IMG/VR virus record: IMGVR_UViG_3300034355_000190
Span: 1 to 30,456 of that record
DNA from: a virus
Lineage: Duplodnaviria > Caudoviricetes
DNA length: 30,456 nucleotides
Strand: one strand, 5' to 3'
The notes under the pieces: generated by a model
What the model saw: the letters and a program-made list of their open reading frames with translations, nothing else
The model's database searches: none
What the model was told of the DNA's origin: nothing
Program-made: the position numbers and the translations under genes
In this document: positions 1 through 21,060 of the stretch, one piece after another
Layout: the number at the start of each line of letters is the position of its first letter
Position numbering within the stretch: position 1 is the first letter of the stretch

Positions 1-3000
1 CCAGCCACGGTACGGCCAATGCCAGAGGTGGGAGGCTTGGGCTTTCCGAGGCGGTTTCCAGTGGGGGGAGGCTTGGGACGGCTCTCTGCCTTTCCTCCAC
101 CGAAGCGGACAATCTGCTGGTCGTCGGGAACGTCTTGGGTTTCCCAAGGGCGACGGGCGCGGCGTTCTTCCGGCGTCATGTCGCGGCGGGTCTGGACGTT
201 GCGGGCTTCGGTTTCTCCAGCGAGACGGCGGTAGGCGGCATAGGGGCTAAGTTCAGCCTTTGCCTTTTCAAGAGCTTGCTTGAATGTCATGCCATCAGAT
301 TGGTATTTTGTTGTTAGCGCGACGACCTCTTCTTGTTGTTGCATGAGGTCTGGCATTTTTTCGGGTGACCCGCCGCGCGCAAACCCTTCTCGCGCCTGAA
401 TGCCATGCTGATACTCATGCAGCGCAATGGAGCGAGGATCAGACGAGCCCTTGCCGATGTGAAGGCTTTCGATGGGCGAACCCGACCCCATGAATGCGCC
501 TTCGTCCGCTCTGCCCGACCGCATGACGCGAACGTCGCCCAAGTCCTGCATTCCAGGTACGTCGCGGTATGCTTTGAACATGCCGTCAGGGTGGGTAAGG
601 TAGTCCCGTCCATTGCCAATTTCGTTGAACGTGGAGCGGCTATCATCAATCTCAAACCGCGCCTTGCCATCGGGCGAGTGCTTGCCCGCAACAGCGCCAG
701 CATAGGGAGTGCCTTCCAGATGCTTCGACGTAGCGTCCCAGATTTCATCGCGCGAGGCTCCACGCGCCGCCATCTGTTCCGCCATGTCGAGGGCCTGCTG
801 CGGACGCTTCTCGCCCTTCGCTGCGAGAGTGTCAGCGCCGCGACGGCCTCCGAACGTGCCTTGATCTGGCGTCCTGCCCCTTGGCGGTCCCTTCGCCCCA
901 CCCGCCCCACCGAGGCGGTTGCCAATTGCACGAGCGCCGCGACCCATGACGCCGCCAGTGATAGCCGCACCCGCACGCTCGCCAAAGCTGACCTCTCCAT
1001 CGCCGTCAGCGTCAGGCGCAAAGACTGTACCAAGGCCAGCGCCTATCGCCTCGGGCTGGCCTCTCACACCAGCTAGAAGCTTGGAGCTTTGTGTTTCTGA
1101 GGGGTCGAAGGCGGCGTCAGGTGAGCGAACATTCTTCGGGTTGAAAATGACGGTTTCCTGCCCGTCTCCGATGCCGCGAATGCCCTTGAAGCCAGCCGCC
1201 TGAATGACCTCGCTGGCTCTGGCGTCGGCTAGTATTTTATCATCTCCATCGACGGAGCGACGGAGCGCCTCCCAGAATGCCTCGCCCTCTCGCTTGTACC
1301 AGTTTTTCAGCGCGGCAAGCTTCTCGCGCTCGTTCGGTTTAAGTTGCTTGATGATACGCTGTTCGACATCATCACTCAACGAGTTCCAGCTTGGCATGGC
1401 GTCGAAAAGCTGGTCATTCGTCGGCACAACGTAAGGTTTCGCCTCGCCGTACTTACCCGCAACGCCGGGCTGTTCCGAGAAGTAAACGCCGGGACCAAAA
1501 CGCCCACGCTCTGACGTTTGGAACTCGTCAAAGCCGCCGCTTTTGCTGCTTCCGTGATAGACGCGATTATCGACATCAAACCCCTGCTCTCTCGCTCTCT
1601 GCATTCGAGAGGGCTCATCCATAGGCAGAGATGGCTTCCCGCCTCCGAGGCCGTTCCTCACTGGTGGGGGCCTTGAAGCGCCAGAAGCAGGAGGCGGTCC
1701 CTTGGGCGTGGAGCCCCTCGCGAGACGGCCTGCACCAGCGCCGAGAGCGCCACCGCCCGCAGCGCCGAACAGCGCGTTCATGAGCTGCTGGTTCTCGTCA
1801 TCGGCAGGAGCCATAGCCCCAAGGACGCCGCCAGCAACTATGCCCGTGCCGGTCGCAGAGGCTGACGAGGTCGTGCCGGGCGGGCTGCCACCGGGGCCAC
1901 GCGGGCGGCGACGCGGAGCAGGAGGCGGTGCAGCAACCGCAGCAGGTTGAGCCGGAGGGATCAACCCCTTCTCAGCCATGCGCGCTTCAACGCGACGGAT
2001 GACCTCGTTGAGATTGCCCTCGGTCATCGGCTTCCCGATGAGCGGGATCAGGGCGCGGTTCACTTCCTCATCGTAGACGCCAGGATAGCGGAGACGCTGG
2101 TAGATGTCCTTCGCCGTGCGTGCGATCGGCTTGACGGCCACATCGTTGACAAGGCCCGGCAGAGAGAACTGGTTGCCCGAGGTTTCGACACGGTCGAGCA
2201 CGCGCGTGACGGCGTCCTCGCCTTCCATGCCGGCGTCACGGATAGCAGCCTGACGCATCGCCGTGTCAGAACCACCTGCAACGCGCCTGCCCCACTCACG
2301 GTTTGCGCCAAGCCTGCGGATTGTCTCCTCGAACATATCGGCAGCCTTCTGGCTACCGAGCGCCGTCGCCATGTTCTTGAGCGCCTTGTCCTTCAGGAGC
2401 TTTGTCAGCGCGCTCTGGTTGTTGGCCTCGATCAGATCCTCGATGTTGCGGGCGACGCCCATTGCAAGGGCTTCGATCTCGCCTGCGGTCCAAGGCGAGC
2501 CATTGCGGCCTTTCGCCATGTCGCGCTGAAGTTCCCACGTTTTCTTGTTCAGCGCCTGAGTGCCGACATCAAAGGCATCTTCCAGACGTTTGACATCCTC
2601 AAACACGCCGAGCGCATTACCGTACTCGCCGCCCGTGGCTTGGCTCACGCTGTCGGCAAAGTTGCGCTTCGTTCCGCCAACAATGCGGGCTGTGTCCGAA
2701 CCAAATCCAGCATTTGCGATGACATCGTCAAAGGCGCGCTTTGTGTAGTCCAGCGCCATCGTCGTCGGAATGGCTGTGCCGCGAACAGGATCGGCCATGA
2801 AGTCGTCGATCGACTTGACCGCTGCCTGAGCACGCTGCGATTCCATAGTGGCACGCTCAGACGCCCCGCGCGCCGCACGCGCCTGAAGGTCAGCCGCTAC
2901 TGAAGCAAGGTTGTTGCGAGCAGCCTGAAGGGCCTTCTGCCCGCTCGGCGTGTTCAGAACCGGCACGATCTCGTTGGCAAACACCTGCGGATCAACGGGG

Positions 3001-16538: not shown

Positions 16539-17087
16539 TTATCGGATGAACTTCAGAAGCGTCATTGGCTTCTGGTAGTGCTCGTAAATCTCTGTCGCGG
16601 CCTGGATCAGCACGAAGCCGTGCGCCGCAAATGCTTCGGCGTATTCGGACGGCTCGCGGTTGAAGACGGGCGGATCACCCTCACGCCGCCACTCCCTGCC
16701 CATCATCTCGCTGACGTAGACAACCGGCGCTTTCATCCGGCCAATCAGCGCGTCCAGTTCGTCGTCAGGGACGTGCATCAGGACGGTATGGATCAGGTAC
16801 ACGTCGCCTTGCGGAAACTCGTCCTGCACCACGTCAAATGCATGGAGAGGGTTTCTCTCGATCGCCTCGGCAATGCTCCGCTCGTTCAGGTCAACGCCAA
16901 GGTAGGCGTGCGGCTTGAATGCGCAGGCCAGTCGTCCCGGCCCGCATCCGATCTCGACCACGAAGCCATGCGAGGCGACTTCAGCAAGATACGGCAGCAG
17001 CCACGCGCCTTCCGGGTTAGCCTTGCCTGCTGGGGTAATGTGGCGAACGCCGTTCTGTGCTCGCCAGAAATCCGCAGCTAGTTCCAT
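16539..17087 (-). CDS. Class I SAM-dependent methyltransferase, 182 aa
   Basis: VVEIGCGPGR (motif I), YLGVDL (motif II), HTVLMHVPD. Confidence 0.85.
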   Translation of the reverse strand: MELAADFWRAQNGVRHITPAGKANPEGAWLLPYLAEVASHGFVVEIGCGPGRLACAFKPHAYLGVDLNERSIAEAIERNPLHAFDVVQDEFPQGDVYLIHTVLMHVPDDELDALIGRMKAPVVYVSEMMGREWRREGDPPVFNREPSEYAEAFAAHGFVLIQAATEIYEHYQKPMTLLKFIR

Positions 17088-18451
17088 AAGGCTGTCTCAT
17101 GTGGCCGCGGCTGGCCGTGATAGAAGACGACACGCGCATCGTCAGGAACACCGTCCCCGCATTGCGCCTTGAAGCTCACAAGCTGGCCCGGCACGATGTC
17201 CTGTAACCGCATCGCCATCGGCATGTGCTGCCCGATGAACGCCTGATCTCCACGCGGGTCATCGGTCGGGCAACCAGCGTCCTGCCATGCCTGCCAGACA
17301 TGATCCGCCTCGCCTGCCGTCCAGCTCATGATGCCTGAGCCCATCTGGCCCGGCTGCCACACGTCACGCAGGCCAGCGAACGGGCCGTCGTAATCCATGA
17401 GGTCGGTCAGATCCCCGGTGATGACCGTGTCCAGATCGAAGTAGACGCAGCGCTCGCCCTTGTTGAACCGGCCAGGCTCAAACATCTGCATCTTTGCCCA
17501 CCAGTTCGCAGGCCCTTCACGCAGGACATGGAACTTGGCCTTGCCCTGATAGTTCTTCGCCACACCGCTGAGCAGGTGCGAGACGTAGTCCTCGCCCCGT
17601 CCGAGATAATTTCCCGTGGCGACGCATATGACGTTCAGCGGCTTCGTCGAGGCCCGGCGCGGCCAGTTGGCGATGAGGTTAGCGCGCTCCCGCACCATGC
17701 TCTGAAGCAGCCCGTCGCCGTGGAAGTTGACCACAGGCTTGTCCGCATCCAGCGCGAACACTTCCTGCATCTGGAACCAGTCCGTGCATTGCGTCAGGAA
17801 ATTGTTGTCCGTGACGTAGCCGTTGATCTCGATCGTTCCGACCGTGCCATCCCTGCTGTCGGGATAGGCATGGGTCTGTGCGCCGCGATACGACGAATCC
17901 AGCCCGTGCATCTCGAATTTGCGGAACCCCATGTAATGACCGAGGTTGAGCCAGCGGATGCCCATCGTGGTCCCGCCTGCAATCATCGGCGTGCCGCGGG
18001 GGAGTGTTTCGCTGATCCCAGGGGCTCCGCTCGGATGCCAGAGGACGACCTTGCTGGTCTTCAGCTTGTCAAAGACGCTCGGATGGCAGGTGGACGCCAC
18101 GAAGTAGAACACGTCAGGATGCGGCTCGATCAGGTCCGCGATGTGCGGGCGAGCGTCCAGCAGGCCACAGGCCCAAGGCGTGATGGATTGCTCCAGAAGA
18201 TAACCCAGACCCGCATTGGCCGTGACAATGACGCCTTTGAGGTCATGGACTGTGTCCCTGAGAGAAGGGCCACCGCCCGCAACAGTCAGGGTATGACCGT
18301 GCGGGCGGCAGTGTTGCGGCATAGGCAGGCCCCGCCCCAGCGCCGAACGGACGTGCTCAAGCATCGTCTTGTTCGGCGTGGATACTTTCGGCGGGACCAT
18401 CGAGAGGACACGGGCAGCCGCGCCCGCGCCTCCGTCAGTTGCTCTCATCAC
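17078..18451 (-). CDS. Two-domain glycosyltransferase: Maf/DUF115-like N-terminal domain fused to a GT8-like GT-A domain, 457 aa
   Basis: N-domain: VAGGGPSL..TAN..LDAR..ASTCHP..GGTT.G..GFRKFEMHGLDSSY. C-domain: WWAKMQMF..YFDLDTVITGDL (DxD)..GDQAFI..VVFYHGQPRPHE. Confidence 0.78.
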   Translation of the reverse strand: MMRATDGGAGAAARVLSMVPPKVSTPNKTMLEHVRSALGRGLPMPQHCRPHGHTLTVAGGGPSLRDTVHDLKGVIVTANAGLGYLLEQSITPWACGLLDARPHIADLIEPHPDVFYFVASTCHPSVFDKLKTSKVVLWHPSGAPGISETLPRGTPMIAGGTTMGIRWLNLGHYMGFRKFEMHGLDSSYRGAQTHAYPDSRDGTVGTIEINGYVTDNNFLTQCTDWFQMQEVFALDADKPVVNFHGDGLLQSMVRERANLIANWPRRASTKPLNVICVATGNYLGRGEDYVSHLLSGVAKNYQGKAKFHVLREGPANWWAKMQMFEPGRFNKGERCVYFDLDTVITGDLTDLMDYDGPFAGLRDVWQPGQMGSGIMSWTAGEADHVWQAWQDAGCPTDDPRGDQAFIGQHMPMAMRLQDIVPGQLVSFKAQCGDGVPDDARVVFYHGQPRPHETALWN

Positions 18452-18991: not shown

Positions 18992-19803
18992 TCAAGGCGA
19001 AGAATCGTAGATCTTGAACGTGTGGACCGGGTTCTTCAGGACGACTTCGCCCATGAAGCCCAAATGTTGCACAATTGCATCCTGGTTGATCGGCATCTGC
19101 CGGCCACCGAAGCGCTCGAAGTTCCGCTGCGGGTTGTAGAAGAACTTGAGGTCTTCCATTGAGACGCCGTAGGTCACGTCATCCGGCATGGCCGAGCCAA
19201 CGCCGCCTTCGAGCACCACGTCGATCGACTTGCCAGCCCCATAATATTTCATGGCGCTGAAACCGCCTTTGCCGAGGCCGTTCTCATCGTTGATCCGCTG
19301 GATCGCCGTGAGGGCCGCGTCATACGCCTGATAGTGCTGCGTGGAGCAGACCAGCAGGTCGGGGCCTTTCTTGCCGCGCGAACGGGCGAACACCGCGTTG
19401 TTGAACAGCGGGCGGATGGTCGTCGATGTGACCGCCGTAATCGCCGTGCCGGCAACAGTGATGGAGTTCGCGTTGTAGGTCGTCGTGCGCCACTGGGTAT
19501 TGCTTACCCGGCTGATGCCGCCATACGAACCCGTCGAGGTCGTCGTCGGGATGGCAAGCTGCAAGCCGCCGATCTGGTTGTCAGCCGAACCTGCCGAGTG
19601 CATGTCTTCAACGAAGCGGTCCTGAAGTTCGGTTTCCGCCGCGTCGATGTGCATCTCGAACACGTCTTCAAGCTGGTTCGATCCGGCGTTTTGCAGGATC
19701 TCCTGGCCGGTCAGCATCATCGAAACGGCGCCCATCTTGGGGGTAAATTCCGCATCATTGAAGAGGTCGGTCGGGTTGGGTGAGAGGAATTGCGCGCCTT
19801 GGT
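18992..19803 (-). CDS. Major capsid protein, exon 2
   Basis: The frame extends upstream of the track's ATG 19735 as (T)AC CAA GGC = Y-QGAQFLSPNPTDLFNDAEFTPKMGAVS; capsid-like GQEILQNAG, IGGLQ, YGGISR...WR, PINQDA. The joined CDS is 199+812 = 1011 nt = 336 aa. Confidence 0.9.
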
Positions 19804-19983
19804 CAGTATTGTTATCGCGCGGCGTTTAAGCAGCGCTTCTGCATCTTCCGTAACGTTGATGCAGCTCAGACTATATCATCGCCGTTGTTGCGGCGTCGGG
19901 CGCTCGTGGGCGGGTTATTCTTTCGTCACCGCCTAGTCGTTGCACCTTCCGCATCCCTGACCCTTTCGGGCTACGTATGCGGC

Positions 19984-20012
19984 TTGGCTCAGGATTGTCG
20001 ATCCGGTATAAC
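19984..20012 (+). promoter_or_regulatory. Candidate sigma70 promoter for the intron HNH gene, antisense to the ribozyme
   Basis: TTGGCT (19984-19989), 17-nt spacer, TATAAC (20007-20012), about 75 nt upstream of the GTG start. Confidence 0.6.
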
Positions 20013-20086
20013 AAGAACGGTTCTTGCTCTGCCGGGATACGTCGGTTTTCCCTGAGTTCACCCGATTATTCGATTTGGAGTCGTCC

Positions 20087-20842
20087 GTGCCAAAGATCGT
20101 CAAGACGTGTGTTCGATGTGGTGATGACTTCTCAGTCTGGCCCTCGCGCGTGAAGTGGCAGGAAGCGCGTGGCCTTGAGGTCAAGTTCTGCTCTCAAGCC
20201 TGTACCGCAGCAGCGCGGTCTGAAGGCTTGATCGCTTCCCGTAAGCGCGAGGGCGAAGAGGTGCCGTGCGCGACGTGCGGTAAGCTGGTCTACATGAAGC
20301 AGTTCAGGCTGAAGACAAACACTCTTCACTTTTGCTCTCAGAAGTGTCGCACGAAAGCGATTTCCGAGAACCGCGTTGACCGCAAATTCGAGCAGGCGAG
20401 CGAGAAGAAGAGGACCGGCAAGTCATTCGCCTGCCGCATATGCGGCGAGAAGAAGTACCAGCGGATTTCCTATTACAACCGGAACGTCAACAAGACTTGC
20501 GGCAAGAGCGAGTGCGTATCTGCCTATGCCCGTAGTCGCTGGGGTCTTCCGCCCTGTTCGACCAACCATAGAAGAAGGTCAGCCGCGAGAGGAAAACTGC
20601 CACAACCGAAGCGAGCATCCAACTTCACAGCCAAACAGAAGGTTGAGTGGTTGGGTTGTAAGTGCGCTCGCTGCGGCACGACCGAGAACTTGGCTCTTGA
20701 TCACATCCTTGCAGTTTGTGCAGGCGGACTATCGACCAGGGACAATGCCCAGACGCTTTGTCAGCCGTGCAATAACTGGAAGTCTAAACACGTCGATATG
20801 CCCTTGGCGCGGGCAAAGAACAAACTCCGAAAAGCGGCTTAG
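20087..20842 (+). CDS. Intron-encoded HNH homing endonuclease with three N-terminal zinc-ribbon units, 251 aa, antisense to the host gene
   Basis: GGAG 20077-20080 then GTG 20087; three CxxCG..C...C units; C-terminal CARCGTTENLALDHILAVCAGG..DNAQTLCQPCNNWK HNH-type motif. Confidence 0.88.
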   Translation: MPKIVKTCVRCGDDFSVWPSRVKWQEARGLEVKFCSQACTAAARSEGLIASRKREGEEVPCATCGKLVYMKQFRLKTNTLHFCSQKCRTKAISENRVDRKFEQASEKKRTGKSFACRICGEKKYQRISYYNRNVNKTCGKSECVSAYARSRWGLPPCSTNHRRRSAARGKLPQPKRASNFTAKQKVEWLGCKCARCGTTENLALDHILAVCAGGLSTRDNAQTLCQPCNNWKSKHVDMPLARAKNKLRKAA

Positions 20843-20861
20843 TGGAGGCGATCCACGGTTA

Positions 20862-21060
20862 ACCGAGTATACGAGCCCGTCTCGTTGTAGAGCTGACGGA
20901 CGCGGATGGTTGGGCCGGAGTAGGTCTTGAAGCCCCCCCGGTTGCGCATGACGAAGAGGATGGCGTTGGCGTTGCTGACGAGGTCTTGCGTCCCCGGAGC
21001 ACGGTATTCCAGCGCCAGCGAGAAAGCTTCTCCAAGCTTCTCAACTGTTGTGAGTGCCAT
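20862..21060 (-). CDS. Major capsid protein, exon 1
   Basis: MALTTVEKL..DLVSNANAIL..KTYSGPTIRVRQLYNETGSYTR plus one T; directly follows the scaffold gene and joins exon 2 in frame. Confidence 0.9.

Follow-up and report, generated by a model that had tools for sequence, protein, structure and literature searches.

Endonuclease genes carried by group I introns have been described in arrangements that partly resemble the locus of this study. In the mycobacteriophage LittleE, the major capsid gene harbors a group I intron with an endonuclease gene (gene 14) on the opposite strand, and splicing was shown for this phage (Pope et al., 2013; PMC3706429). The paper gives this layout without a promoter, the word itself being absent from its main text. 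In phage T4, I-TevI, II and III of the td, nrdD and nrdB introns have their own promoters mapped by primer extension, which are of the middle or late class and subject to autorepression via an operator (PMC2988022). Both inverted endonucleases within capsid introns (LittleE) and promoters inside introns (T4) are already known. Moreover, the myxomycete rDNA introns encoding I-DirII (Dir.S956-2) and I-DsqI (Dsq.L2066) carry the endonuclease antisense to the group I ribozyme under a separate promoter (PMC3073962; PMC9548176). Term look-ups of PMC11878797, PMC10914365 and PMC3428280 returned nothing on the inverted-ORF layout. In the literature searched, which comprised few subscription papers and no supplements, there was no description of a promoter across the reverse strand of a phage group I core. 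A cyanophage antisense RNA reportedly links psbA to an endonuclease, to judge from the title of a reference.

Here, we analyzed a viral DNA stretch of 30,456 nucleotides (in the following “the window”), in which the reverse strand of the P4-P6 domain of a capsid-gene group I intron is likely a host sigma70-type promoter of an inverted HNH endonuclease gene, a reading to which we assign a probability of roughly 0.7. The LittleE ORF is located 3' of the core and has the intron 3' end and exon 2 as its upstream DNA, whereas the ORF of the window replaces P2 and has the P3-P4-P5-P6 core as upstream DNA (PMC3706429). The T4 genes are oriented in the intron sense and use phage-type promoters, whereas the window site is, judged by its sequence, of host type and located on the opposite strand across the catalytic domain (PMC2988022). 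The myxomycete systems differ in being eukaryotic, with polymerase II, spliceosomal introns, poly(A) and, in the case of I-DsqI, an endonuclease of the His-Cys family (PMC3073962; PMC9548176).

The window represents a 71% complete virus record with its structural operon on the minus strand, including portal, a scaffold-like gene, major head and tail genes. This operon also contains, at 17078-18451 (minus strand), a gene whose product of 457 aa has an MptE-like domain (E 5e-12). The major capsid gene and its insert are organized as follows:

18992 to 19803, minus strand: exon 2 of the major capsid gene (PHROG 9953 major head protein, E 7e-57)
19804 to 20861, minus strand: group I intron of 1058 nt (RF00028 match; boundaries from the in-frame join and a contig joint)
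19869 to 19942, minus strand: P7 strands, enclosing P7.1, the P3 3' strand and P8 (motif coordinates, Rfam alignment and fold)
19997 to 20050, minus strand: P5 extension of 54 nt between the P4 strands (fold and core parsing)
20050 to 20065, minus strand: P4 5' strand (20050-20056) and P3 5' strand (20059-20065), complementary to the predicted leader
20087 to 20842, plus strand: inverted HNH endonuclease gene, 251 aa, GTG start (Pfam HNH_5, E 1.1e-7; HNH; zf-FCS)
20862 to 21060, minus strand: exon 1 of the major capsid gene (in-frame exon join; contiguous in intronless relatives)

Joined, the two exons encode 336 aa in frame, and excision of the insert restores the capsid frame with a U as last base of exon 1 and a G as last base of the intron, as in group I introns. 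The RF00028 alignment to the insert reached 47.8 bits (E 8.7e-11), slightly below the gathering score of 50, and an Rfam search of the window at the gathering threshold gave no match; the P3-P7 catalytic core with P, Q, R and S elements is present in this alignment, and P4/P5 covariation is seen in relatives. No match to the intron core was obtained in the cultured phages searched.

A contig from an RNA library (X16) shows the exact exon joint of 19803 to 20862. This joint fixes the boundaries, not splicing, because an intronless capsid allele exists (P0001, 101 members), which is 98% identical to the joined exons (330/336 aa); X16 is therefore not taken to prove splicing, and the joints X17 and X18 are from contigs that are diverged or have a replaced junction. 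The P0001 allele further indicates that intron-plus and intronless capsid alleles coexist in close relatives. Among 40 capsid relatives fetched, an insert matching the intron core was found in two (L006 and L030), while the others with an exon-1 match were contiguous. A comparison of the insertion site of the window (20862/19803) with those of L030, L187, L259, L265, L406, L407 and L408 showed that the intron family occupies at least two capsid-gene sites three codons apart, each within a tyrosine codon. In several viral contigs (L076/L077, L078, L088, L094, L110 and L406), a stretch of about 1 kb contains two related group I cores.

The HNH ORF is intact inside the intron, its HNH_5 and HNH domains score above the Pfam cut-off, and it sits at the position of the P2 hairpin of ORF-less relatives. 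Only two matches were obtained for the HNH, both weak; the HNH protein of the sister intron L002 is 71% identical to that of the window. The protein is predicted to act as a nuclease on the intronless allele. In L030 (1630-2240), a 9-nt direct repeat resembling an insertion footprint is found at both ends of the inverted ORF; its counterpart in the window is only loose. The gene faces against the whole structural operon and its start codon follows the P4 5' strand by only 36 nt; its promoter must therefore be located in the core or further upstream. Within the core, a promoter-like site is found, followed by a putative ribosome-binding motif:

19984 to 19989, plus strand: -35-like TTGGCT, i.e., AGCCAA on the intron strand (P4 3' end, P6 and J6/6a; Rfam alignment)
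20007 to 20012, plus strand: -10-like TATAAC at a 17-nt spacer from the -35, without -7T, within the 3' arm of the P5 extension
20017 to 20020, plus strand: predicted transcription start, about 20019, placed by the -10 position
20077 to 20080, plus strand: Shine-Dalgarno-like GGAG, 6 nt before GTG; the same GGAG precedes the TTG start in L002

A preliminary description of this DNA had recognized TTGGCT as the reverse complement of AGCCAA at the 3' end of the Q element and TATAAC exactly 17 nt away in the variable P5 extension. Coordinates and Rfam alignment agree with the former, since AGCCAA within AAUCCUGAGCCAA covers the final two bases of the P4 3' strand as well as P6 and J6/6a in the RF00028 alignment, and the latter was located in the 3' arm of the 54-nt P5 extension. 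RNA polymerase would use the ribozyme-fixed TTGGCT as -35 and the TATAAC of P5 as -10 and initiate at about 20019, giving a 68-nt leader up to GTG 20087, which ends in GGAG. A leaderless start at TTG 20024 was considered and rejected, since GTG 20087 has the GGAG and agrees with the starts of the relatives. Within the predicted leader, GGAG can fold into a small hairpin (20076-20087), which might damp translation. A second promoter-like site (TTGGCA-17-AATAAT, 20093..20065, minus strand) lies inside the HNH start and faces the antisense site; it has no -12T, its spacer is 18 in L002, and it is hence possibly due to chance.

Taken alone, the window site is suggestive of a promoter. TATAA occurs a single time in the 30 kb window on either strand, and TATAAC is unchanged in L183, L206 and full-length contigs from three runs, all runs analyzed being unstranded contigs. 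In dinucleotide shuffles of 19804-20086, such a -35/-10 pair (TTG-start -35 with at least 4/6 and -10 with at least 5/6 matches, thresholds that were chosen after the site was seen) arose in 0.85% (spacer 17) or 2.3% (spacer 16-18) of cases. Under an E. coli-type matrix the site scores 7.2 and a shuffle of P5 only gave p=0.107, because the -10 has no final T; for the same reason, a stock promoter scanner requiring T at the last -10 position omits it. Ranked with our own matrices, the site is 25th in the window when -7T is required and first when the -7 position is uninformative. It has the TTG -35 (4/6) and the 17-nt spacer of E. coli-type sigma70 promoters without their -7T, and it shows the TTG-start -35, the TA-start -10 and the free choice of the -7 base of the alphaproteobacterial type. 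In alphaproteobacteria, -7T is missing from most sigma70 promoters (Myers et al., 2021; PMC8407463), which pair a -35 beginning with TTG and a -10 whose last base is not T, as is the case for TATAAC; this comparison extends as far as the host of the window can be deduced from distant capsid matches, and a dependence on CarD would be speculative. The capsid matched at 64% a protein named from Agrobacterium and at 45% that of a Rhizobium phage as best cultured match, and also matched Myxococcus, Microcystis and Stenotrophomonas phages; an alphaproteobacterial host is thus possible.

The case for a promoter is carried by the relatives of the intron. Viral, metagenome and genome collections were scanned with patterns and proteins, which yielded at least 419 loci and, after parsing, 263 distinct cores; two of the scans covered the best 121 of about 340 and the best 120 of about 470 matches, with flanks for 80 loci each. 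A plus-strand ORF of at least 100 aa was present in 36 of the 263 cores (33 of them Pfam-scanned, the other three being the window and two close copies), and one inverted-HNH family in capsid genes accounts for 14 rows. Whatever their ORF, the cores carry TTGGCT (165/263) or TTCGCT (77/263) as Q hexamer. Since the hexamer is fixed by the ribozyme, the conservation of TTGGCT is uninformative on transcription and was rejected as promoter evidence; the test is the -10. A pairing rule (TT-start -35 with at least 4/6, TA-start -10 with at least 4/6, spacer 16-18, -10 inside P5), which was set after several members had been seen, was passed by 12/14 inverted-HNH introns vs. 18/249 others, some of which could hide an inverted ORF because the flanks are short. 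Counted among these 249 is L234, which has an inverted HNH of another family and a promoter outside the core: the unrelated HNH_3 gene (989-1429, minus strand) lies in the intron of a phage structural-type gene, and the near-consensus TTGACA-17-TAAACT sits in its own insert.

The association was also seen in narrower comparisons. For loci with a GC content of at least 50%, the rule was passed by 11/13 inverted-HNH introns vs. 0/87 others; by lineage, the numbers were 10/12 vs. 0/7 nearest relatives without the gene, and in the dereplicated set, where the failing member L406 is merged into another row, 10/11 vs. 10/94. The inverted rows in these counts are not independent, because they represent one HNH family with two sister lineages in a weakly supported tree, and Fisher p-values are accordingly too optimistic. 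Read on the intron strand, the same region scores far lower. L184 and L406 have intact-looking HNH genes, yet failed the rule: L406 has TTTACT-17-TACTGT and L184 lacks the A at the usual -11 column. That the site expresses the HNH gene, as the preliminary description had proposed, is consequently held here as likely, with promoter-like pairs in nearly all inverted-HNH relatives and a start known by prediction.

Alternatively, the site could be a latent and inactive look-alike, in which the TTG hexamers come free from the ribozyme, the -10 is due to chance or inheritance, and the HNH gene is either transcribed from a more distant upstream promoter or hardly expressed. This is what the presence of TTGGCT or TTCGCT in 242/263 cores and the P5 shuffle would suggest, as does another plus-strand site at 19720, which scores 7.4 on the E. 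coli matrix and is thus as good as the window site. Similar motifs occur without the gene as well: a scan for TTGGCT-(16-18)-TA[ACT]AA gave 83 stretches, among them 17 distinct intron-like viral loci, of which one (L002) has an inverted HNH. The remaining 16 show none, one of them having a short flank and one a 96-aa ORF outside the Pfam scan; all 16 are at or below 46% GC (14 under 42%), and they include one TATAAC at 16 nt and one TATAAT at 18. The expectation of the preliminary description that the -10 is confined to introns with the inverted ORF thus fails. Moreover, the score of 7.2 was matched by 11/94 other introns, including the ORF-less sister L196 (TTGGCT-18-TACGTT, 7.3), and the sisters L200 and L267 score 8.6-8.7 (TTGGCT-18-GATAAT in L267, which likewise has no ORF), while the ORF-less sister L066 has TTGGCT-17-TAGATC. 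The reverse strand of these cores is hence already near a promoter, which weakens any single match and at the same time explains how an inverted gene could gain one. In addition, segD of T4 is an inverted endonuclease beside a capsid gene with no promoter found, according to PMC2988022. Against a look-alike stand the GC-rich introns, which pass the rule in 11/13 cases with the gene and in 0/87 without, the turnover of the -10 sequence while TA and spacing stay, and the use of three different -35 registers. On balance, we regard an inactive site as rather unlikely and a working promoter of the HNH gene as the preferred reading.

The three registers also bear on how this promoter may have evolved. 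The Q hexamer serves as -35 only in the lineage of the window (L001, L183, L206 and L002; 4/14 rows), where P5 is 52-54 nt long; the sister L002 has TTGGCT-17-TACAAT with -7T present, despite differing at 16/55 P5 alignment columns. In most other inverted-HNH relatives (P5 of 36-38 nt), the -35 is usually TTGACT at J5/4 and the P5 3' arm, 11 nt further on, followed at 16-18 nt by TATAGT, TAGACT, TATTAT, TATAAA or TACAAG; TTGAC at J5/4 was found in 7/11 inverted vs. 1/94 other introns of the dereplicated set. L259 represents the third register, with TTGGCT 5 nt upstream of Q and TATACT at 16. The proposal of the preliminary description that a -10 arising in P5 recruited the Q hexamer as -35 may consequently apply to the sub-lineage of the window, but not to most relatives, which use the J5/4-P5 -35. 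In the HNH tree, the two lineages are weakly supported sister groups, and the cores form a polytomy in theirs, so that there were at most two or three independent origins; neither tree gives the direction.

Across ten relatives that belong to the other lineage, -12T is kept in 10/10 and -11A in 8/10, compared to 4-7/10 for neighboring P5 columns, and 6/8 P5 pairs show two-sided changes. The invariant -12T column together with these two-sided changes indicates that the helix and the TA are both kept while the rest turns over. The hexamer lies within the predicted P5 stem and internal loop and could be kept for RNA structure, e.g., a P5 loop or a tertiary contact, instead of transcription. It is, however, part of the 3' arm in the lineage of the window and of the 5' arm in most others, with a different pairing each time, and P5 is much shorter in most related introns, all of which makes a purely structural role hardly credible. 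Rather, the same DNA would be under dual constraint, with the P4/P5/P6 fold on one strand and likely polymerase binding on the other.

As stated in the preliminary description, a transcript from this site would be antisense to the intron, its predicted leader being complementary to the P5 5' arm, P4 and P3. No T run of at least 4 is found within 200 nt past the stop in the window, L002, L030, L187 and L406, which makes read-through over the splice site possible and, together with the leader complementarity, the antisense overlap unavoidable. The transcript could in principle be a regulator, whose leader pairs with P5, P4 (5' strand) and P3 (5' strand), blocks splicing and delays the capsid until late, and whose read-through product would in addition pair with P1, the 5' splice site and exon 1; antisense interference has been raised for the eukaryotic antisense endonuclease genes (PMC9548176). 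We consider such a splicing gate quite improbable, since what speaks for it is the geometry of the overlap, which follows from the inverted layout alone, and intronless as well as ORF-less relatives make capsid without such an RNA. Late in infection, the capsid message should also far exceed the endonuclease message, which counts against a gate. The overlap would rather be a by-product of the promoter, with abundant capsid RNA more likely to silence the HNH message than the reverse.

A T4-type operator, i.e., a homing-site mimic over the promoter, was not found: the best 14-nt match in the window had p=0.37, and 1/14 rows was under 0.05 in a test that includes three poorly placed junctions. 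A 7-nt match of the L002 junction to its -10 was rejected as an operator, as it is not general.

Freed from the late capsid operon, the HNH gene could be expressed earlier or in the prophage, and its product would cut intronless capsid alleles for homing. Integrase genes were found in 3/11 records, among which are those of the L002 phage and of an intronless relative, and were absent from the partial record of the window and from two complete ones, so that prophage expression is possible for some members. It is also conceivable, although a long shot, that P4-P5-P6 is two-faced as ribozyme scaffold and promoter, with the 16-18 nt spacer dictating how long P5 is, the -35 shifting between fixed ribozyme positions, and a mutual switch in which the HNH message would prevent the core from folding early on or in the prophage, while HNH would be silenced late by the capsid message.

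Without a splicing gate, the locus is an elegant variation on established intron biology rather than a new system. As such, the family offers a testable answer to how an opposing endonuclease gene gets expressed, i.e., by one or two base changes in P5 that complete a promoter half-supplied by the ribozyme. If true, this would explain the survival of an inverted insertion with only about 15 nt of upstream sequence of its own, and it would clearly exemplify how a DNA signal for protein binding can be overprinted on a catalytic RNA domain.
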